Below, piece by piece: positions 32,301 through 62,623 of a stretch of 64,000 bases of DNA; position 1 is the stretch's first letter, and every line of letters starts with the position of its first letter. The translations under genes were made by a program, and so were the position numbers. This DNA comes from Nemertoderma westbladi (lineage: Eukaryota > Animalia > Xenacoelomorpha): contig JAUCBJ010008976.1 in assembly GCA_032718475.1 (NCBI GenBank), positions 62,001 through 126,000 of the forward strand, given 5' to 3'. The notes under the pieces were generated by a model that saw only the letters and a list, made by a program, of their open reading frames with translations, was not told the DNA's origin and did no database searches.

Positions 32301-32453
32301 GAAAAAGTTAAGTTGCTGCGTTTAAACTGCGAACAAGTTAAGTTGCCTCGTTTAAACTGCGAACAAGTTAAGTTGCTGCATCTAAACTGCGAACGAGTTA
32401 AGTTTCTCAAATGACGTTGCTAGTTGCGTTGCCCACGACGTGTAAACCGGCCT
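29396..32453. mobile_element. MITE-like element (PIF/Harbinger-like TIRs) with an internal 30-bp satellite, copy 1
   Basis: Imperfect 16-bp TIR ATGCTGGTTTAGACGT / ACGTGTAAACCGGCCT (13/16 match), flanked by TTA / TGA. Confidence 0.55.
29502..32403. repeat. 30-bp satellite array GTTTAAACTGCGAACAAGTTAAGTTGCTGC (~95 units)
   Basis: Tandem 30-32 bp units with recurrent variants. Confidence 0.98.
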
Positions 32454-37100: not shown

Positions 37101-37457
37101 GCGTTTAAACTACGAACAAGTGAATTTGCTGCGTTTTAAACTACAAACAAGTTTAGTTGCAGTGTTTAAACTGCGAACAAGTTAAGTTGCTGCGTTTAAA
37201 CTGCGAACAAGATAACTTGCTGCGTTTAAACTGCGAACAAGTTAAGTTGCTGCGTTTAAACTGCGAACAAGATAACTTGCTGCGTTTAAACTGCGAACAA
37301 GTGAATTTGCTGCGTTTTAAACTACAAACAAGTTTAGTTGCAGTGTTAAACTGCGAACAAGTTAAGTTGCTGCGTTTAAACTGCAAACAAGTTAAGTTGC
37401 CTCGTTTAAACTGCGAACGAGTTAAGTTGCTGCATTTAAACTGCGAACAAGTTATAA
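34102..37457. repeat. 30-bp satellite array, copy 2, left part
   Basis: Same unit as copy 1; interrupted by BEL element 1. Confidence 0.98.
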
Positions 37458-38003
37458 TATTTGGAGAGACAGTAACAAAATACCCTGCAATATCCTACTG
37501 TAAAGTTTGTGAATCAAATCATAAATCCGACCTTCTCACCAAAACAGTAAACTCTAAGTAAGCGAATATATTGCAGTATCGGTCTCTTATAACCGGTGAG
37601 GCAGAAAACAGTCTACGAACGGACAAACTTCGATAAAACAAAATCCCGCGCAGCGAATCCTAAAATCGGGCTGACTCACTGACGGACTAAGGGCGCTCGT
37701 ATACTTTGCCGCGGTGTGATTTATATGGTTGGGATAGAGAGATGCTAGCTAGGTGCAGAAAGGTCTAACTAGCGGGCAAAGCGCAGTACGGACAAAATTA
37801 TTTTATATATTTTGAGGTGTAAATAATTTCTAACGTGCGTGTGTCTTGATTCTAACAGTCAAATCAGTTTTAATCCTTCACATATATAATTACTGGGTCC
37901 GGTGTGCATTTTACAAATATTCTAATTTTATAACTTGTAGGTCCAATACTCACGAATGATAAGGCTCCTTCCCCTTTTGTGTATTTCCAGAATTCGGCAA
38001 TTT

Positions 38004-39813
38004 TATTTATTTATTTATTTCTCTTCCGTCTATATATATGATTGCACTCATAGTAGAATATTGAATATAAGGTAGAATATTGAATATATATGTACATACT
38101 TTTAGAACTGTAGAGCACAATAATGATTATAAGGGTGTTATGTACACTGGAGGGGAGCAGTAGCAGTGCTAGTAGAGCTCCCTCCATATGTACGAGTTGA
38201 CCGGGGGGGGGGGGGGGGGTGGGGGGGGGGGGGTTATGGATCGAGAAGTTATCGGTTGTATCCGTTAAAATTTTTATTGTGTATTTTAGATTTTGCTGTT
38301 GGTAAATATCCCTGCCGGAAAATGTGCCGGTTTGACCGAATCCGAAACTGCCGTATCCATCAGCATAATATAATAATCAATTAATTAATTAATTAATAAT
38401 TAACTGTATTTATTGTAATATGGTGTGTTTATGGAGTGTAATTATTAATAAAATGTCTCTAGGTATTTTTTAAGATAGGGTCTGGAGGAATATTTTTTTT
38501 AATTTATATGAAAACGAGTTTTTTGATTTAGCATTTTTTATATCGCTAGGGAGGGCATTCCATATTTTAGGGCCAGTGAATTTTAAGGATTTCTGGGTGA
38601 GCTGTAGTCTTACACGTGGAACGAAAAAATTTTGTGCATAAGTTGATCTAGTGTTATATCTGTGGATGGAACTAGTTTGTTCAAATAAATTTTGTAATGC
38701 TTTAGTTTTTTTCATTTTTTTAATATCATACATATATTTAGCCACTTCAAGTTCGAATACTTTTTCGAGAGGTAAAATATTTAAGTTTTTATAAATCGGG
38801 TTAGCATGAGCTTGATAATGGCTGAAAGTTATTGCTCGAACAATTTTATTAACTTTTATTTTCAATTTATCAGTATTTGTTTTGTGTGCGTTGCCCCAGA
38901 GTAGTATTCCGTAGAGGATATGTGGATAAACTAGTGCGAAGTAGGGGGTTCTTAAAATGTGCAAAGGTAGAATGTATCTTAATTTGAAAAAAATTCCAGT
39001 AAGTTTCGAGATTTTTGAGTGTATGTAATTGCAGTGTGTTTTCCAGTCAATTTTATTGTCAATATAAATACCTAAGAATTTTGATGCTGTTTTTTGTGTA
39101 ATTGAGATAGAGCGGAGTGTAACCGGGGGGAGCGTTGTTTGTCTGCAATTATTAAAAATAATGTATTCTGTTTTTTTTAAATTCAGGGAAAGTTTATTGT
39201 CTATGAGCCAGTTATCAAGTTTCACTAGTTCGTGGTTGACAGTTCCAATAAGGTTATTAATATTTTTAGCACAATGTAGTAGTGTTGTGTCATCGGCGAA
39301 AAGTGTGGAAAGGAGATCAGTACAATTTGGAAGATTATTAATGTAAAGTAGAAACAATATTGGGCTCAGTATGGCCCCTTGTGGAGTTCCACACGGTGAC
39401 CCAGTACGTTCAGAAGTAATACCATTGATGTTAACTATGTGCGACCTGTTGTGTAAGAAACTAGAAAGGAGCTGTAAGGGGAGTCCGCGTATGCCGTAAC
39501 AGTCCAGTTTCTTAAGGAGAATGTCGTGGTTGAGTGTGTCGAAAGCCTTCTTTAGGTCTATTGATATGAGACAGGCTGAGCCACCGCCATCCAATGTATG
39601 CTGTATTTGTTCAGTAACTGTTAAAATTGCGTCACTTGTGGTAATGTTTTTCCTGAAACCATGTTGTGATGAAGTGAGTAATTCGAATTTGTTTAGGTAT
39701 CCTATTAATTGAGTGTTAATTACGCGCTCATATATTTTTGTGAAAATGGGTAATATTGATATAGGACGATAATTATTTTTATCTGTGGGGTCCCCCGTTT
39801 TATAGACTGGAAT
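38004..39813 (-). mobile_element. 5'-truncated CR1/L2-group LINE inserted in the 3' LTR
   Basis: Absent from the other LTR; (TAAA)n tail; candidate TSD AATTT (37999-38003 / 39814-39818). Confidence 0.9.
38470..39810 (-). CDS. LINE reverse transcriptase fragment
   Basis: The frame is open upstream of the listed ORF (NYRPISIL, QHGFRK); motifs IDLKKAFD, GTPQGAILSP, FADD and KFLGI. Confidence 0.9.
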   Translation of the reverse strand, partial: PVYKTGDPTDKNNYRPISILPIFTKIYERVINTQLIGYLNKFELLTSSQHGFRKNITTSDAILTVTEQIQHTLDGGGSACLISIDLKKAFDTLNHDILLKKLDCYGIRGLPLQLLSSFLHNRSHIVNINGITSERTGSPCGTPQGAILSPILFLLYINNLPNCTDLLSTLFADDTTLLHCAKNINNLIGTVNHELVKLDNWLIDNKLSLNLKKTEYIIFNNCRQTTLPPVTLRSISITQKTASKFLGIYIDNKIDWKTHCNYIHSKISKLTGIFFKLRYILPLHILRTPYFALVYPHILYGILLWGNAHKTNTDKLKIKVNKIVRAITFSHYQAHANPIYKNLNILPLEKVFELEVAKYMYDIKKMKKTKALQNLFEQTSSIHRYNTRSTYAQNFFVPRVRLQLTQKSLKFTGPKIWNALPSDIKNAKSKNSFSYKLKKIFLQTLS

Positions 39814-40873
39814 AATTTAATTTACCAGGTCCCTAATACTAAGAAGAAATGTGTTAGCTTACTACAGTAGGCGTACAGTTACTAATAGCTAGCCTGGCGT
39901 TCTTATCTAGAATTTTGGTTGCCTAGATGGGCACGGCAACTTCCTAACAGAATGTTGGCGGGGACACGGTAGATGTTAGTATCCCTAATAGCCTCAATTT
40001 ATTTGCGCCTAGTGGTAAACTGCCCTACCGCCTGAACGGTACAATCCCAATTCAGGTAAAACACAGTAGCCCTTCTAGCCTACAAGTTCAAATGCAATGG
40101 ACACCGTTGTACTACAAACAGTCACCGACGCACCTATACTTAGCAAGAGTTAGGCGTACAGTTTGCTGCACCCTACCAATGTGTATGCCTTGTACTGGTG
40201 TGCCTGCGTCCTATCTGTGTACTAGTATCTCTCTGCCTGATCTCCTCTCCTCTCCCCCGTAGGAATGTGAAGGTCTACTGCGGGTTTTCTCTGAATTAAG
40301 ACAGTACGGTCCCTAGATGTAATTTTTTTAGCGCACAGCGTGTCACTACCTCTACCTTCGATCTTTGGTCTTACACTTAGGTAGCAAGGCATTGAACGCT
40401 GTCTAACCTTTCAGGCGATGGGCGAATAACTAAGAATGAATATTGTGGGTTGTCTCCTTCCTACATTCCTCCGATGTTCCCGTCTATCGCCGCGGTCCGA
40501 TGTTTAGCCAGCCATCTGTCCCTCAGTTGGGTTCACCGTGGTGAAGCATAGTAAAAAACAGATGTAACAAGTATTTTCTAACTTTATTACAGAATTAAAC
40601 AATAACTATTATACAATAAATGTAACAAGAGTGAAGATAACTAATGAACAAAACCGCACCTTTTATAGCAAATTTGTGCTGCAATCAATCGAGATAAATC
40701 TAGATTGTTCTATGAGTTCTAATAGGTTTTTAAAGATAACTATTGGTCCAGCAAACACGTATCTTACACGACATTGGTTACAATCTAATAACTGCAATCC
40801 TATTGGTTAATCTACCTTGAGCAAATGCAATTTAATTCGTAGCGGTTAATTTAAATGAGTCGAAACTTAGCAC

Positions 40874-40957
40874 AAAAAATAATTCGCACCTACTAGGATT
40901 CGAACTCGATACCAACTACACGAATTTCCAACGCTTAACCGACTGAGCTACTGAACC
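40874..40957 (-). ncRNA. tRNA-derived Pol III unit (A box, B box, T6 terminator) in the 3' LTR
   Basis: GGTTCAG-TAGCTCAGTCGG-TTAAGCG...GAGTTCGAATCC...TTTTTT on the minus strand. The cloverleaf is imperfect, so it is not called a tRNA. Confidence 0.7.
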
Positions 40958-41594
40958 ACTTGAACAATGTTATACAAATAGATATACTGAATGCAAATGA
41001 GGACTTAATGTAATCTTTATAGCAAAGTTAATTCGAACAAAATAAAATTTTGAAAATCCACGGCATTTGCATTTGTGAGAATATAATTTTATACCGCTCC
41101 ATGAAAACAGGATATTATCGTGCATAAAATATACGGTTTTCACCATTACTAAATCAAATTATGGAATACTTGGGACGTACTTACATATTTACAAATTAAA
41201 TCTCAACAATAATACCTCTACATAATAATTCGATACAAAATAATTACAAATTCAAACTTTACGTATTTAAGGCTTTATTAAGTAAGTACAATATAAATCT
41301 AAATTAAATTCACCAAATTAAATCTATTGCATCTCAAATATTGCATAAATTCAAACAATCACAAATACAAATACTACTTAAATATAAAACAAATTGCATA
41401 AGTTCGGAATAAATCACAAGAAAGGCTCACAAGTCTTCCGTCTGCTCTTGCCTTCTATTTACTGTGAATACAAATACTGCTTCTTTATAAAATATAAATT
41501 GCATAATATTCGAAACAATAAATTGCGTAAGTTTGGAATGACTACAAATATAGCACTTTCTAAATATAAATCTTTCTAAATATAAATCTTACTA

Positions 41595-44159: not shown

Positions 44160-47100
44160 CTATTTACTAACATTTGTTGGAGACTTGTAATCTCCAGACT
44201 TGTTTCGCGTCTCTTCAAGAAGTACGAGACGTTGAGTCGGTCTGTCTACTGTATGACCGTCAATTGTCCGTACCGTCACGGTTCTTGTCACTCCATCCAT
44301 AGATGGATGTGTGTCTAAAATTACACCTGTTATCCAGAAGCGTCTTTTTAGATTCACTTCTGCTAACAGCACATGATCTCCCGCTCTTAAAGCGCGAGTT
44401 TTGTTGTACCAGGTTGTTCTGGCAGAAATAGAGGAGGGCAAATAATGGTTTTGCCATATTTCCCAGAATTTGTTAGCCAGTAGTTGCGTGATTTTCCACG
44501 CTTTTCTACCGTAGCTATCGCCTTCTGTTGGAATAGAAATAGGCATTAATGTAGTCGGTGCCTGCATTAGCAGGTGTGCTGGTGTTAAAGCAAACTGGGA
44601 TTGTTTGTCATCGGGTACTAATACTATTGGTCTAGTATTTAGTATTGCCTCAATTTCAACAAACAATGTTGTCAGTTGGTCGTCTGTCAAGATGTGGCTT
44701 ACTGGAATTACTTTCGCCATGGCTGTTTTTATAGATCTAATCAATCTCTCCCAGACTCCGCCTCTCCATGGACTATCTGGAGGATTGAACTTCCAAACAA
44801 TCTTGTAAGGACGTAGTTCGCTTGAGATTTGATCATGATCTAATTTCTTAAAGGCTCTAGCGATTTCATTTCGAGCACCAACAAAGTTTGTACCTTGGTC
44901 TGAGTACAAGCATTTTACTAGTCCGCGTCTAGCGATAAATCGCCGCAATGCTAGTATAAAGGCGTTGGTGGAAAGATCCATCACACGTTCAATATGAACT
45001 GCCCTACTGGACATGCATGTGAAAATCAGTCCCCAGCGTTTTACTAGTATACGTCCACGTTTCGTATGTATGGGACCAAAGCAGTCAATTCCAGTCTCTG
45101 TGAAAGGTGGTCTGAATGCCTGTAGTCGTGCTTGTGGAAGTTCACTCATTTCTTGGGTACTTATTCTAGAATGTACCTTCTTACAAATAATACACATACG
45201 TGTCACTGAACTTAGCGCTTTACTGGGTCTAATTAATACAAATCTTGTACGTAAGTAGGAAAGACAGTGGTGTCTTCCAGCGTGTTTCAGATGTAAATGT
45301 GCGTCCAGTATCATTGCACGTTGTAATTCGTGATGTTGCGGTATTATTATTGGGTACCTAAAATCAGTATTAAAGTCGATGTTTTGAAACCGAGATTTAT
45401 GACAAATTAAGCCATTATAAATTATCAGACTCCAACTCAATATTGGTGACGACTTGATTGGTTGACCTTGACTTATAGATGTGAATTCGCGCGCGAAATA
45501 TCGCAATTGGTAATGGCGAATTAATTTAATTTCACATCTGTCAATCTCAGTCAGTGTGAGTCGACGTGTAAAGTCGCGTTTGCCTTTAACGTATTGTACA
45601 AAACGTACAATCCACGCTAATTTTCGGCACGCGTTTGTCCAAGATTCTGTCAGATTTACAATACGGTCGACGTAAGAATTTATGACGTCATCAGGTAAGT
45701 CAATGATGAATTTTGAAGGTTTTGTTTTACTAGATGGGCCCACGAGTCCGCCGGTAAGTATTCCCTTGTTGACTGTTGATCCGTCCGGGTCTACAAGTAA
45801 TTTGTCCTTCTTCGTCTTCTTACCTTGATTGTCAGTACTTTGTGTGTCGATTCCTAATGGTGGTTTAAATTCTATGGGATCACTGGGTTTCGGTAAATTT
45901 ATTTTTGTGCCGATATTAATCCCAGGTCTCACCGTAGGTTGTAAGGTTGGTATGTCTCTTGAGCGTAAAGTAACACCTGTATTTACATTTGCGTAGGTAC
46001 TACCCACATCTGTAATACATGAGGTTTCACTGTACTTATGGTTACTCAAGGGTGTCAAGTTTGGTAGTTTGTCAATAGAAGGCCGCTCCAATAGGGAAAC
46101 TTCGGCTTTACTATGTGTTAGTATGTTACTAGTGTCTGGTAGAACATCTTGTGAAATGTCTTGTAAAATGTTTCGCGGAACATCCGGCGAAACGTCTAGT
46201 AACATGTCTGGCAAAATGTCTGGTAGACCGTCTGGTAACGTGTCTGGTTTTGCATCTGGTAACGTGTCTAGTTGACCGTCTGGCGATACGTTTGGTTGAG
46301 CGTCTGGTAACATGTCTGGTTGACCATCTGGCGATACGTCTGGTTGAGAAAGTCTCGCAAGTCTTCCTGCCTTAACTTTGTGAGTTATATTTTTCCATTT
46401 CGCCTTTGGTTTCTTCTTAAGTTTCACCGTTGTCTTTTTCTTTGCTTTACCTTTCTTTGGTTTCTTTATTTCGGCGTCCTTAGGAATAGTATTAGACTTG
46501 TTATCATATAGTGGCGGCCAATGTTGTGTTGCTCTTTGTAAGAATTGCGGTCCGTGTTGCCAAAATTTCTTGTTCTCCGGTTTACAGAATTCCTCAGGCA
46601 TCATTCCTCGCGACGCAATATCAGTTGGATTTTGTGGTCCGGGACAATGTCGCTAATCTTCTTTTATTGAATGGTCTAGAATTTCTGCACGACGGTTAGC
46701 TACAAATGTCTTGAATTCAAGTGTGTCGTTGTTTATATAAAATAAAACTAACGTCGCGTCAGTCCAATAAAATATCTGTAAACTTGACTGTAGTTCAGTC
46801 TGTATGAGGTTTACAATTGTCGTTGACAGAGTTGCGGCTTGTAGCTCAGCGCATGGTGTCGTCATATACTTAGTAGGCATGGTCTTAGCCTTAGAAGTAA
46901 TGAGCGAAACATCAAACTCATCTGAGTCTACTTGTCTGCGCAAATACGCTGTCACTCCAAAGCCGTTGTCACTGGCGTCGGAAAAACAATGTAATTCTAA
47001 GTTGTCAGGAAATGTCGTCTGTAATGGAAAGTACACCCGGGGTATGGAATAATCTTCTAGTGAAGACAATTGCGCCTCCCAAGTTTTCCATAAGTCCACT

Positions 47101-49200
47101 TGTTCGGATGAGATCGGTTCGTCCCATGTCAGTCCATCTTTCCAGATACTGCGCATATATATTCTTGCTTGCAGTATTATTGGGCTGATGAAACCTAAGG
47201 GGTTGAACAGTCGACTCAGCTTTGACAAGCAAGACCTCTTTGTCAGAGAATCCCCTTGAGTGTCCAGTCTTACTTTCACTCGAAAGTTGTCTGTGTTCGG
47301 GTCCCAAAATAGTCCCAACACCTTGGTCGTCGGTAGTGGTTCCAACTCTAAGTCAATATCACCACCCCCACGTTCAGTCGTTTCGAATGAATTTACTAGT
47401 TCGGCACTGTTTGAGGCAAACTTGGTGAGGTTAAAACCTCCGCCTGCTAAACAGTCCCGTAATTGATGTGCTACTGTTATAGCACGTTCTACTGTGTCAC
47501 AACTTTGTAATCCATCGTCCACTAAAAAATCTCATTCTACGATCTGGATTACCTCTGGGTCATATTTATGTTTCTGATCCCTAGCGGTTTGTTTTAGGGC
47601 GTACATAGTGCAGTTTGGGCTGTCCCTGGCACCGAATACGCGAACTTGCATTTGGTAAGTCGCCGGTGGTTGACTTAAGTCTCCATCCGGATACCAGAGG
47701 AACCTCAAACTGTCTCTGTCTCGCTCTAACGCTCGCACTTGGTGAAACATCGCTTCTACGTCACAAGTAAATGCTATTTGGCGCTGACGGAAGCGCATAA
47801 TCACCCCCATGAGATAATTATTCATGTTTGGTCCATCCATCAGCTCACTATTGAGAGACATTCCCTCAAACAGAGCCGCGCAGTCATTAACTACACGTAC
47901 TTTGTCTGGTTTATCTGGGTGCCTCACGTAGTGATGTGGCAAGTAGTATGTCTGGTCTGTTACAATCTCTGGGTTAGTCATTTTGATAGCGTACCCTTTT
48001 GTCAAATACATCTCCATCTGGGTATTATACTGCAGATGGGATTTCTCGTCCTTTAATAAATGTTGTCGTATTGAGTTTAAACATCTTAAGGCTAGCGGAT
48101 AATTATTTATAAGTTTAGGACGTTGGTTACGCCATAGCATCCCTACCTCATAATGCCTGTCTTTCGTCTGGCGGATAGTATCTTCCATGATCTTTAAAGA
48201 TTGTTTCTCTTGTTCTGACATACATGGTTCGTAACTACCAGGTTCGGCTGTATCTTGTTCCAACCATCTGATAGATTTCTCTGTTAATTCTTTGTCTCGT
48301 GCGGCTTGTTCCACTTGATGATTTCTTAACGCGTCTTCATCGACGGGCGTTGTTGAGGTTATTGGTTGAGGTAGACTCGCAAACCTTCCGGCGTTATCAT
48401 CTATCGTTGATAGAACCTCTGCCTGACTCCGCTCCTTCTCAATCTCCACACTACCCTTGTGGATTTGCTGCTCTTTGTGACTTATCGTACTCGCTACACA
48501 CGTCGTACTTGTAATGTTGTTGGGTTTTGTCGAACGTAGTGTAGTATAGTCCTTGTCGTGTGAAAAAGAATGAGTTGAAGTTGTAGTTAATAAACTACTT
48601 GTACTTTGTACATCGTCTTCCTCATCACTTATATCTAGTGTGCGCACAGGCGCTCGAGTATACCAACCTATCGGAGTTCGACAGGCGTATGCATTTCCTG
48701 CTACGACTACCGATGGTCTGGTTTCCCACACTTGATGTAAGTTGAATTGATCTGTCCCGATCAGCATTGCTACTGATCTATAGTTAACAGGACATTCAGG
48801 TACACCAAGGTGTCTGAAATACTTACGATCCTCTAAGGATTGTTCTGGCACTGGACCCAGTAGATTACTAAAGTCCTTTGTGGCCGCAAAAGTTAAATCC
48901 TTGAAGGGTAACAAAGACCTCTCCCTTTCGCTATGTTGCGATTTCGGAAGAAGAGTGTCTAAGTTTAACTTAACTCGTGTCACTGGTATTGCACGTTGTC
49001 CATGCATACTACTTACAGTGTATTTGACGTTCTTACCTTGTCGGAGATCCGTCACGACATCAGCTACCTTCTCATTCACATAACTGTGAGATGAGGCTGA
49101 ATCTAGGATAGCGTAGATTCGATTGCTCCCTTTGTGCCAGTAATCTTGACAGGAATTATGCTAAAACCTTTTAGTTGGTCAGGTGTCAGAAGCGGAATCG
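44160..49200 (-). pseudogene. BEL/Pao pol (protease, RT, RNase H, integrase), frameshifted
   Basis: PR: IPVKI..DSASSHS (broken). RT: YLPHHYV, KVRVVNDC, DVEAMFHQV, FGARDSP, VDD. Pao RH: LHCFSDASDNGFG, ELQAA, WTDA. IN: H..HAG..C..CKK, GIDCFGP, SDQGTNFVGA, GGVWERLI. Confidence 0.95.
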
Positions 49201-49495
49201 ATGGTTGTTCGTCTCCATCTGAGTATATGTCGTCGTCCTCGGTTTCCTCATCAGAAGACCCGGACTGCTCTGGGAAACAATCCCGAATATGCGTCACGAA
49301 CGTTGGTGTTGTTCTCGACTCTCGATTCTTATATACCGTATTACATTTCGCTGCTGCTTCTGGGTGTTCCCTAGCGAAGCGTTTTGTCGGCGTATGACTG
49401 TCGGTATGGAGCAAACCGTCATGGTTGCGTCCACAGGATGGACAGGTGTCCGTATTTGGGCAGTCTTTTCGAACGTGTCCGTGTTGAGTACACCA

Positions 49496-51443
49496 CTAAC
49501 AAGAATCCAATGGCCGTATTTGTAGTCTTCGTTCTTCCGAGTTTAACTCGCGAAACAGCCGACAACCTCTTAACTTGTGACTGGTATGCCGCTTGCCTAA
49601 CTGCTCACAGTATTGGCAACCGCTAAAGTCTGCACTCAGTTGCTGTCTGGTCTGTTTGATCCCAATAGGTGCGGATACTTTACTACCGTCCGAAAATTGT
49701 CGGGTTTCTGTCGATGTGGCGTAAGTGGCCGTCTTGGTGGATGTTGTCTGGGGTTTTTGTCGGTTTGAGGATGGTAAGGTGATTCCTTCTGCTACAATGT
49801 GTTGGTCGGTGTAGTTGGCATTAATAGGTATACATCCTCTAATTTCAAAAATCCACCCCGTTCTTCCCGCTGTTATTCGATCTTCCTCCACTCCCGACGA
49901 AGTCGATGGTGGAGTCTTCCTATGATTTTTAATAGGACTGTAGGGGTGTTCCAGTAATCGAGTTGTCCAATAGATCTTAATGTAGTGATAGCGTTTTTTA
50001 TTTCGTCAGCTAGTTTTAGTAAGTCGACGGGTTTAGTAATAGCCCCCCCCCCTCCTTACAGAGTTCCTCTATCACTGACTTGGCCATGCTGACTGTACCT
50101 CCATAGATTGAAGTTAAGCGATCGTATGCTAACTCGAAGGCATCTGGTACACCAACGAAAGTCTCCGCTAAGCGTTTTGGTTCTCCCGTCAAGGTTTGAA
50201 GCCGATAGTTGAACTTTTCCCTTGATGTAAAAGCGCACGCCGCAATTTGAGATTCGATGTAGTCTACGAACGTGTGCCAATGTTTAGAGTTACCGGAAAA
50301 CTTAGGTGGTTGTTGCACCGGTAGTCCTTGTCTGGCTGCGAATTTAGCTATCTCCTCGGCTACGTTCAAAGTTTCGCGTCCTTGGTTGGCAATCGAGTTG
50401 ATGTTCTCCCATCTTGGCGCTTTTCTTTGATACGAGGTGTTTCTTGAAGGTATCACTCTTTGCGGTTCCTTCGGGCTTCTATTGTGTTCGAATTCGGTGT
50501 TTCGCGAACTATCTGTTTGAACTTCCTCCAAGCGTTCCTTGATCTGAGCCAACTTGTTAACAACCAGTCACAAAATGTCGGCAAATTGTTGCGTACTGAT
50601 CGCGTCCGTTGGTTGTAACGCTTTCTGAGTTGGTGTATTTTGTGGAGGATTGTTTCTAAAGGAATTTGTTGAACGCTCGCGTTTGCATTCATCGACCGCT
50701 CCGGTTCTAAACACCTCGCGTTCCGGGTAATCCGATTCGCTTGAAGTACTACTATCATCTGGATACGGTGGCCGACGTGCTCGCGTCCGTTGGGTTGTCC
50801 GAATTCTAACATTCCGTTTCGAAACATTGTCTACTGGTTTCCGTCGTTCGGTAGGCTCGCAGGTCGGAAACCGACTCACCTAATAACTGGTCCGCTTGTT
50901 CCTGTTGTATCTGTCTAACGGTCGTCTTAAACTGAATCAGTTTCTCCCTAGCGATCATTAATTTCTCGAGGATTCTAAACTGTGTGTCCATATCCTGTCT
51001 CTGCCTAGCTAGATCTTGTAGACCAATTAGATTATCTACGGACTTATGTACTTTACTCTGTACTCTAACCTGTAGGGTGTAGAACTCGAACCGAGACATC
51101 GGAGCGGTCAACTCGTCTAATATGCGTTGGCCTTCTCCAATACTATAGTAATATGCGCCATATATCCTCCGACGCTTCTAACCACGCTCTCCTGGTTTCC
51201 TACTGAACTTACCATGTCCGTTTCCCTGTGTCTAGGTTGCGGGACCGTTAGAAAATCCTCGGTCCTGCCGTCGCCTCGTACTACGGCATCCGGTACTCCC
51301 GTTGGATGTACTGGTGACGCGCACGGTGTAGGTTCGGTAGGCTCACGAGTCTTCCCCTGTGGTTCTTCCGCTTCTGACTTATCCGCGTCACATGAGTCAT
51401 AGTCGGTAGGTGTATTCTTCGTATAGTCTTGTTTGTCACTCAT
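49496..51443 (-). pseudogene. BEL/Pao gag, fragmented
   Basis: PPKFSGNSKHWHTF..EKFNY..LTGEP..AYDRLTSIYG (Pao gag type) and a CQYC..H.SHKL..C knuckle, split across several frames. Confidence 0.85.
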
Positions 51444-52242
51444 TTTGGTAGTTGTAAGTCAAGTAAAGTGAGTGTCAATGTATCAAACTTACCGTATTTA
51501 TATCTAAACGGTATTAATTACAGTCATATAAAATTAGCCTACCGGCCGATTTTATAGCAGATGGATAAAATTAGCCTAGCGGCCAATTTTACAGCAAATA
51601 AATGTCACGGAGTAAGTATATAATAAAATTAGCCTGGCGGCCAATTTTACAACAAATAAATCAGATAACGATATACGTTATCAAAAGGTAAATTAAATAC
51701 AATAATTAACGGACTAATTCAGCAATAAACAAAGAAATCGTACGGAATGCATAAATACTTGAGACAGTGGAACCCACAATAATTTTAACTAATACGGTAA
51801 TGCCTAACTGATTTATGCAACTTTTCAAACTCACCCCCTCCAATGATTCTCCAGAAAAACAGATTCCCAGATACAAAGCGGACGTGAACCTTTCCGTTTC
51901 CAGCGTTGCAGACGAAGTGCGATTTTCCCAACCAAAGTTGTTGAGTTATCTATCTCCCAAACTTGCTAAACACGGTCTTGCTCTCGTTACAGTCTAGAAA
52001 TGAGCTCTGAATCCTGAAAAACAAAAGAGTTAGGTTTTACTTTTACGAAAATTTTGTACCGGTACAAAATGGTATTTAAACCCCTTTTAAACACCGGTAT
52101 TCAATTCCAAATATTTTACACGCGTTTCAAATCAAAGTTTTATTTCAAAAAATTAGCACTTAGCTAATCAAATATAAACTTTTACCTCAAAATACAAAAT
52201 TTTCAAATAACTTTAGTCCTACCGAACCGTAGTTCAGTAAAA

Positions 52243-52253
52243 CACATTCCTAC
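52243..52253 (-). promoter_or_regulatory. Non-tRNA primer-binding site of BEL element 1 (GTAGGAATGTG)
   Basis: Abuts the 5' LTR and has no TGG. It is perfectly complementary to 11 nt within the LTR (53277-53287). Confidence 0.6.
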
Positions 52254-54111
52254 TATTTGGAGAGACAGTAACAAAATACCCTGCAATATCCTACTGTAAA
52301 GTTTGTGAATCAAATTATAAATCCGACCTTCTCACCAAAACAGTAAACTCTAAGTAAGCGAATATATTGCAGTATCGGTCTCTTATAACCGGTGAGGCAG
52401 AAAACAGTCTACGAACGGACAAACTTCGATAAAACAAAATCCCGCGCAGCGAATCCTAAAATCGGGCTGACTCACTGACGGACTAAGGGCGCTCGTATAC
52501 TTTGCCGCAGTGTGATTTATATGGTTGGGATAGAGAGATGCTAGCTAGGTGCAGAAAGGTCTAACTAGCGGGCAAAGCGCAGTACGGACAAAATTATTTT
52601 ATATATTTTGAGGTGTAAATAATTTCTAACGCGCGTGTGTCTTGATTCTAACAGTCAAATCAGTTTTAATCCTTCACATATATAATTACTGGGTCCGGTG
52701 TGCATTTTACAAATATTCTAATTTTATAACTTGTAGGTCCAATACTCACGAATGATAAGGCTCCTTCCCCTTTTGTGTATTTCAAGGACTCAAATTCAGG
52801 CATAAGGTTAATACTACGCCCAGAATTCGGCAATTTAATTTACCAGGTCCCTAATACTAAGAAGAAATGTGTTAGTTTACTACAGTAGGCGTACAGTTAC
52901 TAATAGCTAGCCTGGCGTTCTTATCTAGAATTTTGGTTGCCTAGATGGGCACGGCAACTTCCTAACAGAATGTTGGCGGGGACACGGTAGATGTTAGTAT
53001 CCCTAATAGCCTCAATTTATTTGCGCCTAGTGGTAAACTGTCCTACCGCCTGAACGGTACAATCCCAATTCAGGTAAAACACAGTAGCCCTTCTAGCCTA
53101 CAAGTTCAAATGCAATGGACACCGTTGTACTACAAACAATCACCGACGCACCTATACTTAGCAAGAGTTAGGCGTACAGTTTGCTGCACCCTACCAATGT
53201 ATATGCCTTGTACTGGTGTGCCTGCGTCCTATCTGTGTACTAGTATCTTTCTGCCTGATCTCCTCTCCTCTCCCCCGTAGGAATGTGAAGGTCTACTGCG
53301 GGTTTTCTCTGAATTAAGACAGTACGGTCCCTAGATGTAATTTTTTTAGCGCACAGCGTGTCACTACCTCTACCTTCGATCTTTGGTCTTACACTTAGGT
53401 AGCAAGGCATTGAACGCTGTCTAACCTTTCAGGCGATGGGCGCATAACTAAGAATGAATATTGTGGGTTGTCTCCTTCCTACATTCCTCTGATGTTCCCG
53501 TCTATCGCCGCGGTCCGATGTTTAGCCAGCCATCTGTCCCTCAGTTGGGTTCACCGTGGTGAAGCATAGTAAAAAACAGATGTAACAAGTATTTTCTAAC
53601 TTTATTACAGAATTAAACAATAACTATTATACAATAAATATAACAAGAGTGAAGATAACTAATGAACAAAACCGCACCATTTATAGCAAATTTGTGCTGC
53701 AATCAATCGAGATAAATCTACATTGTTCTATGAGTTCTAATAGGTTTTTAAAGAAAACTATTGGTCCAGCAAACACGTATCTTACACGACATTGGTTACA
53801 ATCTAATAACTGCAATCCTATTGGTTAATCTACCTTGAGCAAATGCAATTTAATTCGTAGCGGTTAATTTAAATGAGTCGAAACTTAGCACAAAAAATAA
53901 TTCGCACCTACTAGGATTCGAACTCGATACCTACTACACGAATTTCCAACGCTTAACCGACTGAGCTACTGAACCACTTGAACAATGTTATACAAATAGA
54001 TATACTGAATGCAAATGAGGACTTAATGTAATCTTTATAGCAAAGTTAATTCGAACAAAATAACATTTTGAAAATCCACGGCATTTGCATTTGTGAGAAT
54101 ATAATTCTATA
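52254..54111 (-). repeat. 5' LTR of BEL element 1 (1858 bp)
   Basis: Direct repeat of 37458-41093 minus the LINE insert. Confidence 0.95.
53892..53975 (-). ncRNA. tRNA-derived Pol III unit in the 5' LTR
   Basis: Same A box, B box and T6 as 40874-40957. Confidence 0.7.
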
Positions 54112-54667
54112 TATAAGTTGCTGCGTTTAAACTGCAAACAAGTTAAGTTGCCTCGTTTAAACTGCGAACAAGTTAAGTTACCTCGTCTAAACTGCGAACA
54201 AGATAACTTGCTGTGTTTAAACTACGAACAAGTGAATTTGCTGCGTTTTAAACTACAAACAAGTTTAGTTGCAGTGTTTAAACTGCGAACAAGTTAAGTT
54301 GCTGCGTTTAAACTGCAAACAAGTTAAGTTGCCTCGTTTAAACTGCGAACGAGTTAAGTTGCTGCATTTAAACTGCGAACAAGTTATAAGTTGCTGCGTT
54401 TAAACTGCGAACAAGTTAAGTTGCCTCGTTTAAACTGCGAACAAGTTAAGTTGCTGCGTTTAAACTATGAACAAGTTAAGTTGCCTCGTTTAAACTGCGA
54501 AAAAGTTAAGTTGCCTCGTTTAAACTGCGAAAAAGTTAAGTTGCTGCGTTTAAACTGCGAACAGGTTAAGTTGCCTCGTTTAAACTGCGAACAAGTTATA
54601 AGTTGCTGCGTTTAAACTGCGAACAAGTTAAGTTGCTGCATCTAAACTGCGAACAAGTTAAGTTGCT
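54112..54667. repeat. 30-bp satellite array, copy 2, right part (the MITE-like copy 2 spans 33995-54714)
   Basis: The array resumes exactly at the TSD. Confidence 0.97.
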
Positions 54668-54925
54668 CAAAATGACGTTGCTAGTTGCGTTGCCCACGAC
54701 GTGTAAACCGGCCTTGAAGTTGTTGCTATAGCTACTGTATACTGCTACGGAAACATGACATTTGTTGAGGATTATTTATTTTCATTACTCCATTCTATCA
54801 CATAGTCCTACATTGTTATTTATCGATGAGTACAGTTGTTTATCATTGGATCTACCCGATGCATTAGAAGTAGAACATTTAAAGTGATTAAACCCACACA
54901 CACATGTTGTGGATTATTTTTTCAT

Positions 54926-55467
54926 TGTTAGCGAATCAATTCCGCCTCACCAAACCCCATAAAGTGAGCCATAAAGCAATATTGGGAGCACGAGGTTGAT
55001 TACCAATATCAACCTCGTGTCACCCCAATAAAGTGGGAAGGGAAGGAGAAACACACAATGGAGGTCAGGGGCCAAACCCCTAACCCAAAGAGAACAGGTG
55101 GAGTGAACGGGAACACTCCAAAGGGTGCCAACAGGGGTATCAACCAATCAGAGGGGGGAAAGGCATCGATTAGGTACAGCAATAAGGCCACCGTGCAATA
55201 TAACCAGTTACCAGTAATCATACCAGTCAGTTATCCTAGTATCATATTGGTGCTAGTTAGGTTAGATAGTTTAGCTAGGGAAGGACCGGGACTTTAGTTA
55301 CCGTATCCCGCCTTCCGTGTACAACAACCTATATCCATATCTATATCTATATCTTTATGCCGATTATTATATACAACGAATGATACGAACTCATTTACTC
55401 TTCACACACGGCGGGGACGCGTGAACTAACACCGGATAAACCGGGATCCTTCCTGGATCCCGTCACA
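54926..55467 (+). repeat. 5' LTR of BEL element 2 (542 bp)
   Basis: TGTTAGCG...CGTCACA, with TATA-like AATATAA (~55197) and a TCAGTT initiator (55227). Confidence 0.97.
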
Positions 55468-55476
55468 GTAACTAAA
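55468..55476 (+). promoter_or_regulatory. Non-tRNA primer-binding site of BEL element 2 (GTAACTAAA)
   Basis: Abuts the LTR and has no TGG. It is complementary to TTTAGTTAC at 55293-55301 in the LTR. Confidence 0.55.
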
Positions 55477-55515
55477 ACCAACTGCTGCCCTAGCTAGTAA
55501 CTAAACCCTTCGGTA

Positions 55516-58500
55516 GTGATTAAACTCAGAGCTGCCGTCCTAGCTAGCGACTACCAGCCACCAAAGACGAAGATGAGTCGAGAGAGAAGAACGACACCGC
55601 CGCGGACCCCGGACGACGATCTAATGATCCGCGAGGCCACGGCGAGACGATACGGACCCACGACGCCGGTCGATGCTACGCCGACCACGTCGACGCACAT
55701 TGACGCCACGTCGATAACGAGCGGCCCGGCGAACCAAGATGTGGGGGGTCGTCTACAGCGAGAGAGCGAGTCGAGTAAAGGAGAGAGCGAGACGAGGGAG
55801 GAGAGAGACGAGTCGACACACGACGGCAGTCGATATGCCGATGTCGCCGGCCAGCCACAGGCCGAGGGCGACGGACGGCCCACCGGAACGGCAACGGTGG
55901 GGCCGACGGTACGACGCCGAACCCGGAGGGAGAGAGGAGATGTCGACGACGAGGACGTCGGGGTCGTCCGGCTCCGACGAGCCTACGCCGCAACCCGGGA
56001 ACAACTGAAAGAAGCTAGAGGAGGGGCTGAGATAGACCAGGTGAAGTTGAGGAGACGACTAGGTGAGTCGAACAGATACTTTGATTACCTAGTGCGTTCT
56101 GGCCAGGGAGAACTAGCCAGCGAGAGAGCGAGAGGGGTTGCCATCGAACTGTTTGGGCTATGGGAACGTAGGGGTATGGGGCCTGATGTAGGGTACATAG
56201 GGCCATACTTAGTCGATGCCAGGGAAGTTAAGTTAGTGGGTTGGGCGGGACCGCACGAGGGCGAATCCGAGGTTAGCTCCGAGGATTCGGTCTCGTCGGT
56301 CAGCGAGAACCCCGGAAAGCGGGGGAATGTTAGTAGGACGGAGGGGCGGCGGAAGTCCGTCGCAACCGATAAGTCTGCTACATCCTCCGCAAAAGAAAGA
56401 CGGGTGCGAGAGAGTGAACGCATGGCATATAAATTAAAAATGGAAGAATTAGAGTGGCGACTGAGGGGAAGGAAAGACAAGAGAGTGAACGCGAAGAGCG
56501 TGAGGCAAGAGAACAGAGCGTGCAGTACACGTACAGTACGTACAGTAACCGTACGGGCGGGGGGGGGGGGGGTAGTAGTAGTGCGTTAGGGAATATTGGT
56601 ATTAATAGTACCGTAGTAAATAACCCTAATCCCTTTATTACAGGAAATATTTTACCCGGTAGTAGTAATTTAAGTTTAAATTCAAATAATAATATTAATT
56701 CAAATATTCAGAATAATCAAAATAATTCAACTAATTCGAATAGCAATTTAAATTTTGAAAATAATAATAATTCTAACTTAAATAATTTAAATAATCCCAT
56801 TTCAAATTCTAATAATTTTATTGATTTAACAAATAATATTGGGAATGGTGCTATTAATGTGAACGCATCAGACGTGTAAAGCCCGGCAGACGGCGGCCTG
56901 GTAGGCCGCGTAGTTAGTAGGCAGGAAGTGGCGCGGTTGAGCCAACCCGAGGTGGGCCTGGTAGGCCACGCAGTAGTAGGGAGAGAGGCGGGGGTGAATG
57001 GACCCAGGCGTAGTAGAGACAGTGTGTCGACTAGAGAGGGGTGTAGAGACGAAGTAAGAGATATTGAAGTTAGATGTGGCGGGTGGGGGGGGGGGGCTAC
57101 GGGCGCCCCACCACATGAGATTAGCGGCGAGAGAGGGGGGGCAGAGAATGCCCCACAAGAGGGGTGTAGAAGTGTAGTAAGAGGTAGTGAAGTTAGAAGT
57201 GGCGGGTGGGGGGGGGGGGGGGCTACGGGCGCCCCACCACAGAAGATTAGTGGCGAGAGAAAGGGGGTAGAGAGTGTCCGACAAGAGGGACGCAGAAGTG
57301 TAGTAAGAGATAGTGAAGTTAGAAGTAGCGGGTGGGGGGGGGGGGGCTACGGGCACCCCACCACGAGGGATTAGTAGCGAGAGAGGGGGGGCAGGGAGTG
57401 TCCCACAGGCGTCGGCGGATAATGCGCGGGCCGAATTAGGTAAACCGCAACACCCGGCGACGGAGAGTAATAGGGGGATTGCGAGTATCCCCAGCGGCGT
57501 GCGATCGAGCAGAGAGAGACAGGTTGACGTCACGAGAGGGCGGGCGACGGAACGTCGAGCCCAGTCAGAAGAGAGAAGATTAGTAGAGTTTAATAGAGAG
57601 GTCAAAGATAGGAGAAGATTAGTAGAGTATAATAGAGAGGTCGAAGATAGAAGAAGATTAGCAGAGTTTAACCGAGAGGTCGAAGAGAGAAGAAAGGAAG
57701 ATAATAGAAGAGTCGTTGCTAGGGGCAACCGGAGAGCGAGGACGGATAGCGAGCCGTCAGTAGTAGAGATGGATACGGAGAGTCAGTGGGGTCGAACTTC
57801 GGGAGATTGCCGTCGCCCCGGAGAAACGCACCGCACGCCAGGAGAGGGGTACAGGATGTACCGATACGAAGAAGAGAACAGGAGTGGGGATCGAAGAGAA
57901 ACTTCCCGACGTGATATAGCTGCCGATCGAGAGTACGGTAGTCGCGGGGAGATTCGAGATTCGAGAAGAATAAACTTCGATTCGGAAGGGCACATGCAGA
58001 CTGCAGGACATACTGTAGGCCTTACTGCACATACTATTATAGGCCATGCTGGGAGAGATAGAGTAGGCGATAGGGTAGCGCGGACGACGGGATTAAACCC
58101 GGAAGTCGCGGAGTACATACCGGTAGGTAGGCAAGAAGTGAATAGGCCTATATCGGTACCGGTACAGCAGCATGACTATAATTTCCAGGGACACAACATA
58201 TATCCAGGGGAGGGGGGAATTATTGCAGATAGATGTATGGGCCCCAATATATTAACATCAACCCCAGTACCAAACATACCGGTGGGAGGGGGACAGGGTG
58301 ACATTCCCCCATCACAATATCAACAATATACCCCAATAGGAGCAAGAACATCGAACCCCTTGGACGAGAGCAGGTCATGCAACACGGAAATATGGAGGGG
58401 GCCGTTACCCCCAATGATATATCCGATGCAACAAATTAAATCAACAACAGATAGGACGGACAGACCGCATCCAATAGGGGAGTCTATACAACATCCATCG

Positions 58501-60021
58501 AACCCATTAGAAGCGCAAGCGATGGGAATGGCCACATTGATCGATGCGTTAAAAACTAGGATCGAGTTACCACCTGTGGAACCATTTAAATTCGATGGGA
58601 GTAGGCCGGAAGAATATCTACAGTTTCGGCGCATGTATAGTAACGAAATATTAAGTAAGAACTTGACGCAGGCGGAGTGCCTAAAATATCTGCAAGTATA
58701 TACAGGAGGCCCAGCATACGACATCGTGAGGCAATACCAGGGCATCGAGGGCGGCTTCACGACAGCATGGCGGGCGCTAGATAGGGAATACGGGCACCCG
58801 GCCAAGATCATCCGGCAAACCCTGAGAGGCATAACATCGGGTGGCCTACAGGATAATCCCGTTAGCATAAGGACCTTTGCGAACAAGGTCGAGAGGGCGT
58901 TAATCGTGTTAAAGACGCTAGACGCACCATACGAACTCAACGCGTCTAACAACATCACCACGATAGCGCAGGCACTGCCGATCTGGCTGCGGAGAAAGTG
59001 GAGGAAGATCGCCTTCTCCACTCGAGAGAAGAAAGGTGCGGAACCGGGCCTAGAAGAAATGTCGAGCTTCCTAAACTATGAAGCCGAATTAATTACAGAC
59101 CCAGTCTATAGTGAGGATAGTTTGGGGAAGGCACCAAAGACCGAATACAACAGGCCTGGACCCGAACATAATCCGACAGACCCATTCTCGGGAGTGGGAC
59201 AATCACTACCACATGCAGCCACACAGGGGACTGCTAGTCCACAGTTAGCTGGTAGCAGGGCCACACCGTGGCAGGGACAGAAAGAAAATAACACCATAAA
59301 TAAACACAATCCCAATATACCCAGTAGGCCGAGTACAGACAACCAAAACACTAAATCGGTACATATAAACCTAGGCGCGATACGTGAGGGACTATACAGG
59401 GAATGCTATAATCCAGGATTTGAATGTCAATTACATCGGGATGGAACACATAAGACCAGGAGTTGTAAGCACTGGCAAGCGTTGCCCAAAAAAGATCGTA
59501 TAGCCTACACAGACGCAAACGGACTATGTCATCGATGTGTGGTAGAAGGGCACAGATCCGGAGAGTGTAGAGAAACAGCAGTTAGAGAGTCCGAGACTGG
59601 AGGCCAGGCAATGGCCACAAGCACGACAGAAGAGGAGAAGAAGAGAAAAGTACTACTCGGGGTAGTACCAGTAAAGATATCAGGAGAGGGCGGTCGATCA
59701 GTAACGACGTTAATGCTGGTCGACAGCGGAGCAGCCTTCACGCTGGTGGAGAACAGGGTGGCCGAAGAGATAGGGCTAAAGACGAGGCCGAACAGAATGG
59801 CGGTAACTACCGTCTCGAGTAAAGATGAGGTCCTGGAGACGAGGACGGGGCGGTGCAGGATAGCAGCGATTGCACCGGGATGCAACTATGGGGCGACTAT
59901 CGACCCCATTCACATCATCGAATCGATAAACATCAACGCCAGGCGACCAACCAACATTGAGGTCGAGCAATATAGATTCCTGGACGGTATCGATTTCTCA
60001 ATAGTTCAGGTGGATGCTTAG
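55516..60021 (+). pseudogene. BEL/Pao gag-protease; 5' part frameshifted at poly-G runs, 57313-60021 open
   Basis: LPPVEPFKFDG..EYLQF..CLKYL..GPAYDIV..AWRALDREYG, knuckles CQLH..H...C and CHRC....H....C, and protease LLGVVPVKI..LVDSGAAFT. Confidence 0.88.
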
Positions 60022-60829
60022 CGGCCCAGTTAAAACTAAGATCCCATGCAGTGTGACAGAGACATCAGGGTGCATGTTACCAGGCACCGCAGGCGCAGAG
60101 GACGAAGAGGAGAAACAAGAGATAGTAGAGCCAGATAGGGAGGTGACAGTAAGAAAGTGGGCAGAGGAGAGTAGGTCTCCCAGCATGCATCGGTATGGAG
60201 ATGGAGCGGAGCGGACAGCGAGGTGTCCGGAGGACAACACTCCGGGGGAGTGCCCGGAGGAGTGTCGGGAGGAGTGTCTAGAGGAGTGTCTGGAGGAGTG
60301 TCCAGAGGAGTGTCCGGAAGAGACGCAGGTCCGGGTTGGAGGCATACCGACAAGGGGGAAGTCGAGAAGGAAGGCAGGATGGAGAGGGGTAGGACTGCTG
60401 TTGTACCTCCTGTTTTGCCTGTTCTTTCACTTTCTATTCATTCTGCCACCGGGAGATAACAAGGAGGGAGATGGCATTTTGATGCCAGGAGACGAGATGG
60501 TTAAGAAGGCGGCGGAGAGACCCGATTTTGGGGTGGCGGAAGAGGGAGAACCAATTCCTGGTCAGTTGGAATTGGCGAAGAAGGTGTGGCGAAGAGTAAG
60601 AGGACGTATAGGAGGGCAGTGGGAGAGTGCCTACTGGAAGAAGGGGCACCTTAGAGTTTAGTCATCCAAGGTTTTGGACTGAGGGGGGTGGGAATGAGGG
60701 CGAGACAAGACGCCCTTCCCACAAGAAAATTAATTATTTAATTAAAAATAAACAATAAAAATAATTAAATAATAGTTAGAAGAGATAGTAAGTAGTAGTC
60801 AGGAGATAAGTTAGAAGAAGTAAGTAAGT

Positions 60830-61612
60830 TAGAAGGCGGCGGGGTAAGGGAGTGTGGCATATTGTCATGCCACGAGTAGTAGTAGGGAGGTTGTGGGCAC
60901 CGTAAGCGCCACGTAGAAGGATAGTAAGTAGAGAAGTTAGAAGGCGGCGGGGTAAGGGAGTGTGGCATATTGTCATGCCACGAGTAGTAGTAGGGGGGTC
61001 GTGGGCACCGGAAGCGCCACGTAGAAAGTAGCGGTGGTAGAGAGGTTGTGGGCACCGCAAGCGCCACGTAGAAAAGTAGTAGCAGAGAGTGGTTGTGGGC
61101 ACCGGAAGCGCCACGTAGAAAGTAGTAGGAGAGAGTGGTTGTGGGCACCGTAAGCGCCACGTAGAAAGTAGCAAGAGAGTGGTTGTGGGCACCGGAAGCG
61201 CCACGTAGAAAGTAGTAGCAGAGAGTGGTTGTGGGCACCGCAAGCGCCACGTAGATAGAGGTATTAGTTGAGGTGGAGATGTAGATAGAGTAGAGTAGTA
61301 GAGACGGGCACATAGGGTGCCAGAGAGTAGAGTAGTAGAGAGGGCACATAGGGTGCCAGGTAGTAGAGTTAGAGTGTTAGAGGTAGTAGAGAGGGCACAT
61401 AGGGTGCCAGAGAGTAGAGTAGTAGAGAGGGCACATAGGGTGCCAGGTAGTAGAGTAGTAGAGGGTAGATAGTAGAGTGGTTGTGGGCACCACAAGCGCC
61501 ACGTAGATAGAGGGTTTTAGTTAGAGTTAGTAGTAGAGTGGTTGTGGGCACCGCAAGCGCCACGTAGATGGAGGTAGTAGCAGAGGGTTGTGGGCACCCT
61601 AAGCGCCACGTA
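60830..61612 (+). repeat. Purine-rich tandem repeats within BEL element 2 (GTGGGCACCGNAAGCGCCAC x10; GGGCACATAGGGTGCCAG x4)
   Basis: Visible tandem ~44-50 bp units occupying the place of pol. Confidence 0.9.
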
Positions 61613-62087
61613 GTAGAAGAGTTAGAGTTAAAGTTAGTAGGCTTAGAGAGATAGTTAGAGTTAGTAAGAGAGTTAGATAGTTAGCAAGTGAGTAGTAGGT
61701 AGATAGTATGATAGCACAGGGGTAGCATTAGAGGTCAGGGCCTTAAAGAGTGGCAGGGAGTAGAGAGGAGATAGTGAAAGGAACTGTTGACGAGAGAGAA
61801 GAGTGCGATTCAGGTGTGGGGAGAGGGTAAGAGCGAGTTGAGTCAGAGAGCGGAGTTAGAGTGGTGAGAGTGTTGGGGAAACAAAAATTGTGTGAGAGAA
61901 GCGCACGATCGGCCCGACACGAGACGCCAGAGGGTAGTGACATCATACCCATAGGGAGCGGCCCAGAAAGCCGACTCCAAGAAAATAGATCCACCCCACA
62001 CCCGATAATAGATCGAGTTCCAGCGGAATTGAAGCGCACTTAGTGGTTGATGCTATCTTCTCACCGGGAAGATAGCATGGGGGGGAG

Positions 62088-62623
62088 TGTTAGCGAATCA
62101 ATTCCGCCTCACCAAACCCCATAAAGTGAGCCATAAAGCAATATTGGGAGCACGAGGTTGATTACCAATATCAACCTCGTGTCACCCCAATAAAGTGGGA
62201 AGGGAAGGAGAAACACACAATGGAGGTCAGGGGCCAAACCCCTAACCCAAAGAGAACAGGTGGAGTGAACGGGAACACTCCAAAGGGCGCCAACAGGGGT
62301 ATCAACATATCAGAGGGGGGAAAGGCATCGATTAGGTACAGCAATAAGGCCACCGTGCAATATAACCAGTTACCAGTAATCATACCAGTCAGTTATCCTA
62401 GTATCATATTGGTGCTAGTTAGGTTAGATAGTTTAGCTAGGGAAGGACCGGGACTTTAGTTACCGTATCCCGCCTTCCGTGTACAACAACCTATATCCAT
62501 ATCTATATCTTTATGCCGATTATTATATACAACGAACGATACGAACTCATTTACTCTTCACACACGGCGGGGACGCGTGAACTAACACCGGATAAACCGG
62601 GATCCTTCCTGGATCCCGTCACA
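62088..62623 (+). repeat. 3' LTR of BEL element 2 (536 bp)
   Basis: Direct repeat of 54926-55467 with a 6-bp microsatellite indel and a few substitutions. Confidence 0.97.

Follow-up and report, generated by a model that had tools for sequence, protein, structure and literature searches.

A BEL/Pao retrotransposon of Nemertoderma westbladi whose primer binding site pairs with its own long terminal repeat: a candidate self-priming element

Replication of BEL/Pao retrotransposons is described by the ICTV, the international body for virus taxonomy, as tRNA-primed, with an 18-nt primer binding site (PBS) for tRNA-Arg or tRNA-Gly, and is there called poorly understood (PMC8742986). Self-priming has been described for the Tf1/sushi elements and predicted for Tcn1 and TAR copia elements, as far as the available text of the sources goes (PMC6317226, PMC4600332, bioRxiv 10.1101/2022.12.06.519325). 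Tf1, Tf2, Tj1 and the Tf1/sushi group have no tRNA PBS and carry a segment of the long terminal repeat (LTR) complementary to the PBS (PMC4600332, available portion). The same arrangement was found in element 1, a BEL/Pao element on the minus strand of a 64,000-nt stretch of Nemertoderma westbladi DNA (contig JAUCBJ010008976.1, assembly GCA_032718475.1), which was analysed as a whole and is called the window below; it is animal DNA with many satellites and mobile elements. From sequence comparison and modelled folding, we put at roughly 0.7 the probability that element 1 primes reverse transcription with its own RNA, as a form without an intron at the primer site.

An earlier note on this DNA had stated that the 5′ LTR of element 1 is followed by 11 bases other than TGG and that their exact complement lies within the LTR. 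Both statements were exact: the PBS position reads GTAGGAATGTG (52253-52243), no TGG occurs in the first 30 nt after the 5′ LTR, and the complement at 53287-53277 recurs in the 3′ LTR and nowhere else in the window (Table 1). A PBS-complementary LTR segment with its 3′ end at the LTR boundary, as in Tf1-type elements, is therefore present in element 1. When the LTR was dinucleotide-shuffled, 1 of 1000 sequences reached an 11-nt match (offsets 0-2) and 0 of 60 did so with offsets 0-4, and on 28 other LTRs the element 1 PBS matched at most 7 nt. A second BEL element of the window, element 2, has a 9-nt complement of its own PBS in its LTR, with letters unlike those of element 1.

Integrase searches yielded 102 related loci, 80 from metagenomes and 22 from genome bins; 80 of the 102 were examined, and 22 were set aside because they were too short or lacked useful flank. 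The 3′ repeat ran into unlike flank in 14 loci, and the 11 of these that end in ACA in both copies formed the fixed-end set. One of the 11 (L094) carries TGG, and the other 10 all pair over 10-15 nt with their own LTR. The matches were contiguous in L017, L043 and L084 (10-11 nt, reached in 0-2 of 200 shuffles), while in L009, L020, L022, L028, L055, L068 and L090 they were found solely across a GT..AG interval of 76-511 nt (11-15 nt, 0-2/200 shuffles); the predicted donor was GTAAG in five of these seven, any GT having been allowed. In an all-against-all control with 13 elements, at least 10 nt were matched on the own LTR by 11 of 12 non-TGG PBSs and on foreign LTRs in 7/156, six of the seven foreign matches lying among L009, L020 and L028, close relatives whose PBSs are almost identical; counting these three once leaves 8 PBS types. 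The TGG element L094 scored 4 in this control. The match started 0-4 nt after the LTR end, and the PBS was readable from GT in 10 of 12 elements. The earlier note had named compensatory covariation of PBS and LTR site across related families as a check; matching with family-specific letters was found in every non-TGG fixed-end relative. The PBS/LTR match of element 1 is real and is part of this wider family-specific pattern.

The contiguous and splice types were interleaved on a quick tree of 81 integrases (7 changes each). In L043, the 5′ LTR copy has a pyrimidine tract and AG before the 3′ part of the site and the 3′ LTR copy has the joined form, in a contig that may mix two subfamilies, its LTR copies being 88% alike. 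L014, left out for unclear ends, has an 11-nt junction match with an LTR end that was picked afterwards, and 15 of 16 further loci reached at least 10 nt with the LTR end picked by best pairing, a circular result that was not counted. The related families L044 and L069 have the 3′ part of the candidate primer in common, as do L043, L065 and L092, with a contiguous form in one and a position after a predicted intron in the other (pairing was used to pick the LTR ends of L044, L065, L069 and L092). An intron in element 1 itself that would improve the pairing (e.g., GTAAG donor 53392 with acceptor 53309) found no support, the best of 92 donor/acceptor pairs giving -33.7 vs -31.4 kcal/mol unspliced; the best junction match of element 1 under splicing was 8 nt, equalled in 44/60 shuffles. 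The genome-bin loci, L081-L102, are 22 BEL/Pao integrase loci in bacterial and archaeal bins and are most likely animal host DNA; L094 lies within a Wolbachia chromosome record.

Copies of the element 1 family in the same species were compared by aligning contigs from four DNA runs (X1-X4) to the element 1 LTR. One variant place was listed among the 36 positions of the block around the site, compared with 26 among the remaining 105 bases of 53201-53341, with the limit that rare variants in the block are hidden because the threshold was relative to summed depth, which is far higher there. Summed depth in X1-X3 was 85-240k over 53274-53297 vs 2-47k outside 53266-53313, and record 25 of X4 keeps 53270-53307 with unlike flanks. 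The sole common variant of the 11-mer, at 53285, made up 57-70% of summed depth in X1-X3 and was missing from X4. It replaces a G-C pair by G.U, or by A-U should PBS base 52245 change as well; it lends weak support, because about half of all transitions would be equally tolerated.

A host tRNA half or internal tRNA fragment, as in the Osser, Bryco and Bianca copia lineages, could in principle serve as the primer, the LTR site then being incidental. Half-tRNA priming is known (PMC6317226, available portion). A formal reading of the 11-mer as the tRNA-Arg(CCU) anticodon arm, with its end at position 38, is possible but requires C38. The usual tRNA context is U36-A37-A38. Priming by a tRNA fragment would also leave the family-specific matches to exon junctions and the conserved LTR block unexplained, and we consider it decidedly unlikely. 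ARAGORN predicted no tRNA in the window or in the 41 of the 102 loci that were scanned, and Rfam gave no match over 51400-55700.

Folding of the element 1 leader was predicted as ensembles with four assumed RNA starts (53287, 53310, 53340 and 53660), 1-kb folds being uncertain. Nine pairs of the PBS/LTR duplex had predicted probabilities of 0.83-1.0 with all four starts; for one such stretch, the duplex was absent from the single minimum-energy fold and present in the centroid. In Tf1, a helix of the so-called pretzel joins LTR sequence downstream of the primer to PBS-adjacent sequence, according to the available portions of PMC4600332 and bioRxiv 10.1101/2022.12.06.519325, and such an inner helix is predicted in element 1 too. 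The third pretzel helix was not found in the folds of element 1, where a local hairpin with a UNCG-type loop, cUACGg, is predicted instead (stem core p 0.96-1.0; equal stability in 0/200 shuffles). The earlier proposal that TACTG and TACGGT extend the pairing did not survive: the extensions can be drawn, but shuffled upstream sequence did as well (662/1000; 86/300), and they are disfavoured because the hairpin is predicted to take those bases. Neither the pretzel helices nor the hairpin were retained as a shared feature. The inner helix was above shuffles in 0/12 elements and the outer helix was at no more than 15 of 300 shuffles in 4/12, and the post-PBS hairpin occurred in element 1 alone among the 12.

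If element 1 primes itself, its RNA would start upstream of the LTR site, the site would base-pair with the PBS, and cleavage behind its terminal AC, by analogy with Tf1, would yield the primer as the 3′ end of a longer 5′ fragment. The Tf1 primer is reportedly cut by RNase H, in work attributed to Levin in 1996 and to Lin and Levin in 1997. The "initiator-like context" described earlier for the site does not count as evidence of an RNA start; the only canonical TATA box upstream (53685) lies at a distance of 398 nt. A canonical TATA box was found in 4/10 relatives, 124-135 nt upstream of the primer in three and 47-67 nt in one. With these distances (47-135 nt in relatives, 398 nt in element 1), the primer probably forms the end of a longer 5′ fragment and is an internal RNA stretch, unlike that of Tf1, which is the first 11 bases of the RNA. 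The earlier suggestion of a Tf1-like self-priming BEL/Pao lineage is supported in part, by the family-specific matches (10/10) and by predicted folding; the likeness to Tf1 covers the central duplex but probably does not extend to the position of the primer, which in 7 of the 10 relatives would exist only after a predicted splice.

Strand transfer needs a poly(A) site downstream of the cut. In element 1, use of the AATAAA at 53021 would place R between the cut and the poly(A) site, and among the relatives A(A/T)TAAA follows the primer in 9/10 and AATAAA precedes it in 0/10. In many relatives, primer assembly would require removal of an LTR intron by splicing, and contiguous forms like that of element 1 may arise by reverse transcription of a spliced 3′ LTR copy; progeny inherit that part of the LTR from the RNA's 3′ copy, whose splicing would therefore remove the intron permanently. 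A broader proposal, to which we give about even odds, is that a large share of BEL/Pao uses no tRNA and is primed by an internal stretch of its own RNA, usually joined by the host spliceosome across an LTR intron, so that splicing would license reverse transcription, and that repeated intron loss in the course of replication has led to contiguous self-primers such as that of element 1.

Several results weigh against self-priming of element 1. In a control on real sequence, 5 of 700 leader start positions reached at least 11 nt (the PBS and four positions at three AT-rich sites), so that for a fixed position a chance of about 0.6% is more realistic than 0.1%; this control is stricter than the shuffles. 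With splicing allowed, 6/28 foreign PBSs reached 10-11 nt on the long element 1 LTR. L007 and L058, left out for unclear ends, had no match of 10 nt, and the evidence from relatives transfers to element 1 by shared pattern only, because element 1 sits on a long branch and is not placed with them. The TATA box at 53685, the AATAAA at 53606 and a T-rich stretch resemble a textbook R region; if this AATAAA were used, the site would lie in U5, cutting at the site would deprive strand transfer of its R, and an RNA ending there would need priming in trans or from another RNA. In element 2, AATAAA is present only before the site. The inner helix of element 1 was not significant alone (88/300 shuffles) and varies within the family, the inner and outer helices were not above shuffles, and the duplex was disfavoured in 2 of the 4 elements folded (element 2, p 0.04; L084, p 0.17).

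The 11-nt match might on this evidence be a product of chance in a long LTR, with a PBS that has decayed or is unusual: the real-sequence frequency applies to each leader position, the copy is broken, and spurious 10-11 nt matches arise on long LTRs when splicing is allowed. However, the position was fixed in advance and the match was reached in 1/1000 shuffles, the copy is young, as its 99% identical LTRs indicate, and the same pattern is seen in element 2 and in 10/10 non-TGG relatives, which makes chance highly improbable. Alternatively, the pairing could be selected for a structural or regulatory role (PBS masking, leader folding or a coupling of packaging to splicing), the primer being another molecule or acting in trans from a second RNA copy. 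A primer and a mask are indistinguishable by sequence data, the AATAAA at 53606 would suit priming in trans on uncut RNA, and the duplex is disfavoured in half of the four elements folded. Against such a role, the match always starts within 0-4 nt of the LTR end, the place required for a primer's 3′ end, and 10/12 PBSs are readable from GT, so that the would-be primer ends in AC; moreover, no TGG site is near in element 1, and the PBS letters differ in at least 8 lineages, each of which would need its own host primer. We regard a purely structural role as unlikely and favour priming of element 1 by its own RNA.

Table 1. Coordinates of features in the window (strand as annotated; p, predicted pairing probability)
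Feature	Position	Strand	Remarks
PBS position, element 1	52243..52253	-	immediately after LTR, no spacer, no TGG
Exact 11-nt PBS complement, candidate self-primer	53277..53287	-	5′ LTR; 3′-end AC pairs with first PBS bases
Same 11-mer in 3′ LTR	40259..40269	-	exact copy
36-nt block round LTR site	53272..53307	-	locally best conserved among family copies (contig comparison)
Predicted inner helix, GGAGAG	53268..53273	-	6 bp with CTCTCC 52264-52259; pretzel-type position; p 0.72-0.92
Predicted 11-12 bp hairpin, cUACGg tetraloop	52216..52243	-	directly 3′ of PBS; -15.5 kcal/mol
TATA box, element 1	53679..53685	-	sole canonical one upstream of site; TATAAAT here, TATAAAA in 3′ LTR
Upstream AATAAA	53601..53606	-	79 nt after TATA, before site; problem for self-priming if used
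Downstream AATAAA	53016..53021	-	255 nt 3′ of site; signal that self-priming would need
5′ LTR, BEL/Pao element 1	52254..54111	-	1858 nt; non-canonical TAT..ATA ends
3′ LTR, element 1	37458..41093	-	split by truncated non-LTR retroposon (about 39813-38003); roughly 35 nt deleted
Target-site duplication TTATA, element 1	54112..54116; other copy 37457-37453	-	within 30-nt satellite
Purine tract GGAGCGG	41094..41100	-	adjoins 3′ LTR
Broken gag-pol, element 1	44160..51443	-	DUF1759 gag, Cys-His boxes, protease, reverse transcriptase, Peptidase_A17/RNase H, integrase DD(49)E, DUF5641
BEL element 2	54926-62623	+	5′ LTR 54926..55467, 3′ LTR 62088-62623; TG..CA; target-site duplication TTCAT
PBS position, element 2	55468..55476	+	GTAACTAAA, no TGG
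9-nt PBS complement in element 2 LTR	55293..55301	+	letters unlike element 1; 3/1000 shuffles, 3/200 shuffles

Element 1 belongs to BEL/Pao (Belpaoviridae), the family being defined by its proteins, on the basis of its DUF1759, Peptidase_A17 and DUF5641 matches and its DD(49)E integrase. The Pfam matches follow BEL/Pao order (PF03564, PF05380, PF18701); the protease, reverse transcriptase and integrase motifs were recognised by reading the translation, the broken copy giving no Pfam match for reverse transcriptase. Spacing counted in the translation gave a DD(49)E integrase and an RNase H DAS motif, the values given for Sinbad (PMC554778, available portion). There were 660 homologues at E<=1e-30, with BEL/Pao domains in those listed, and the best protein relatives of element 1 had just 35-42% identity. 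On the tree of 81 integrases, which included no labelled references for the named clades (Sinbad, Sparrow, Surcouf, Suzu, Dan, Flow, Tas, BEL and Pao), element 1 formed a long branch (2.15) placed with none of the relatives. In IMG/VR, no protein relatives of element 1 and no matches to its LTR/PBS junction were found. No chromodomain was matched by Pfam, which separates element 1 from the Ty3/gypsy chromoviruses; the Tf1/sushi elements are such chromoviruses, whereas the BEL/Pao domains place element 1 in another superfamily.

With the Belpaoviridae (Semotivirus; Sinbad, Suzu and other clades), element 1 shares domain content and order, the DD(49)E and DAS motifs and a 5-bp target-site duplication. 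It has the two LTRs, target duplication and purine tract of BEL/Pao, with ends of the form TA..TA rather than TG..CA, and lacks a PBS for a tRNA 3′ end starting with TGG; its total length of 16.7 kb including the insert and its 1.86-kb LTR exceed the sizes stated by the ICTV (PMC8742986). The LTR ends, TAT..ATA, were fixed by the TTATA duplication, which lies in the 30-nt satellite, and no spacer separates the LTR from the PBS or from the purine tract. The LTR pair differs at 18 of 1813 aligned nt. The copy is damaged, with a fragmented gag and two in-frame stops in pol. A non-LTR retroposon in the 3′ LTR (39813-38003, minus strand) is 5′-truncated, with an RVT_1 match in a 448-aa frame, and inserted recently, because the 5′ and 3′ LTRs are still 99% alike.

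An extra open reading frame of 317 aa (43341-42388, minus strand) between pol and the 3′ LTR of element 1 has three CCHC-like zinc knuckles; it had no Pfam match and was not env-like by Pfam. In the U3 of both LTRs, tRNA-like motifs (A box and B box) stand before a T run (53968-53914, minus strand, in the 5′ LTR), a stretch in which neither ARAGORN nor Rfam found anything. Depth in run X4 over 53676-53971 was much above that of the rest of the LTR, and because of this excess the region may be a separate captured repeat.

Element 2 contains gag and protease and gave no reverse transcriptase or integrase match, and it likely moved in trans; its LTRs are 98% identical, with a long inverted repeat in U3. 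Arrays of the 30-nt satellite occupy 29502-32407, 34101-37457 and 54112-54668, with element 1 inside one and element 2 260 nt from the edge. Duplications cover the flanks 28135-29501 and 32910-34100 and the empty site of element 2 (at 32409-32912). A Polinton-like frame of 1359 aa (24711-20632, minus strand) matched DNA_pol_B_2 and, weakly, Endonuclease_7.

In the available text of the literature, neither self-priming nor a splice-built primer was found reported for BEL/Pao, and Repbase, subscription papers and supplements may note non-tRNA PBSs. A term look-up found primer, PBS and tRNA unmentioned in PMC3118150 and PMC6238403, and the available portions of PMC554778, PMC8220671, PMC6934838 and PMC3286476 held nothing on BEL/Pao self-priming. 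A parallel outside the original Tf1 setting is with the TAR elements (Houba, Osr-1) of Ty1/copia and with Tcn1, in plants, for which self-priming was likewise predicted from sequence alone; these are plant copia and chromovirus lineages, for which no splicing step is described in the portion of PMC6317226 available. A primer lying across a predicted intron, as in the splice-type relatives, is likewise not described for Tf1/sushi in the text available.

Element 1 would represent a known mechanism newly seen in a superfamily for which tRNA priming is described; the splice-built form suggested by its relatives would be new in kind. If this is correct, BEL/Pao would join gypsy and copia as a third self-priming superfamily and would be the first in which the primer is internal and often built by splicing. 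This would explain why tRNA-based PBS searches fail on such elements, which may also escape silencing by tRNA fragments at the PBS, and the copying of the element would be tied to host splicing.
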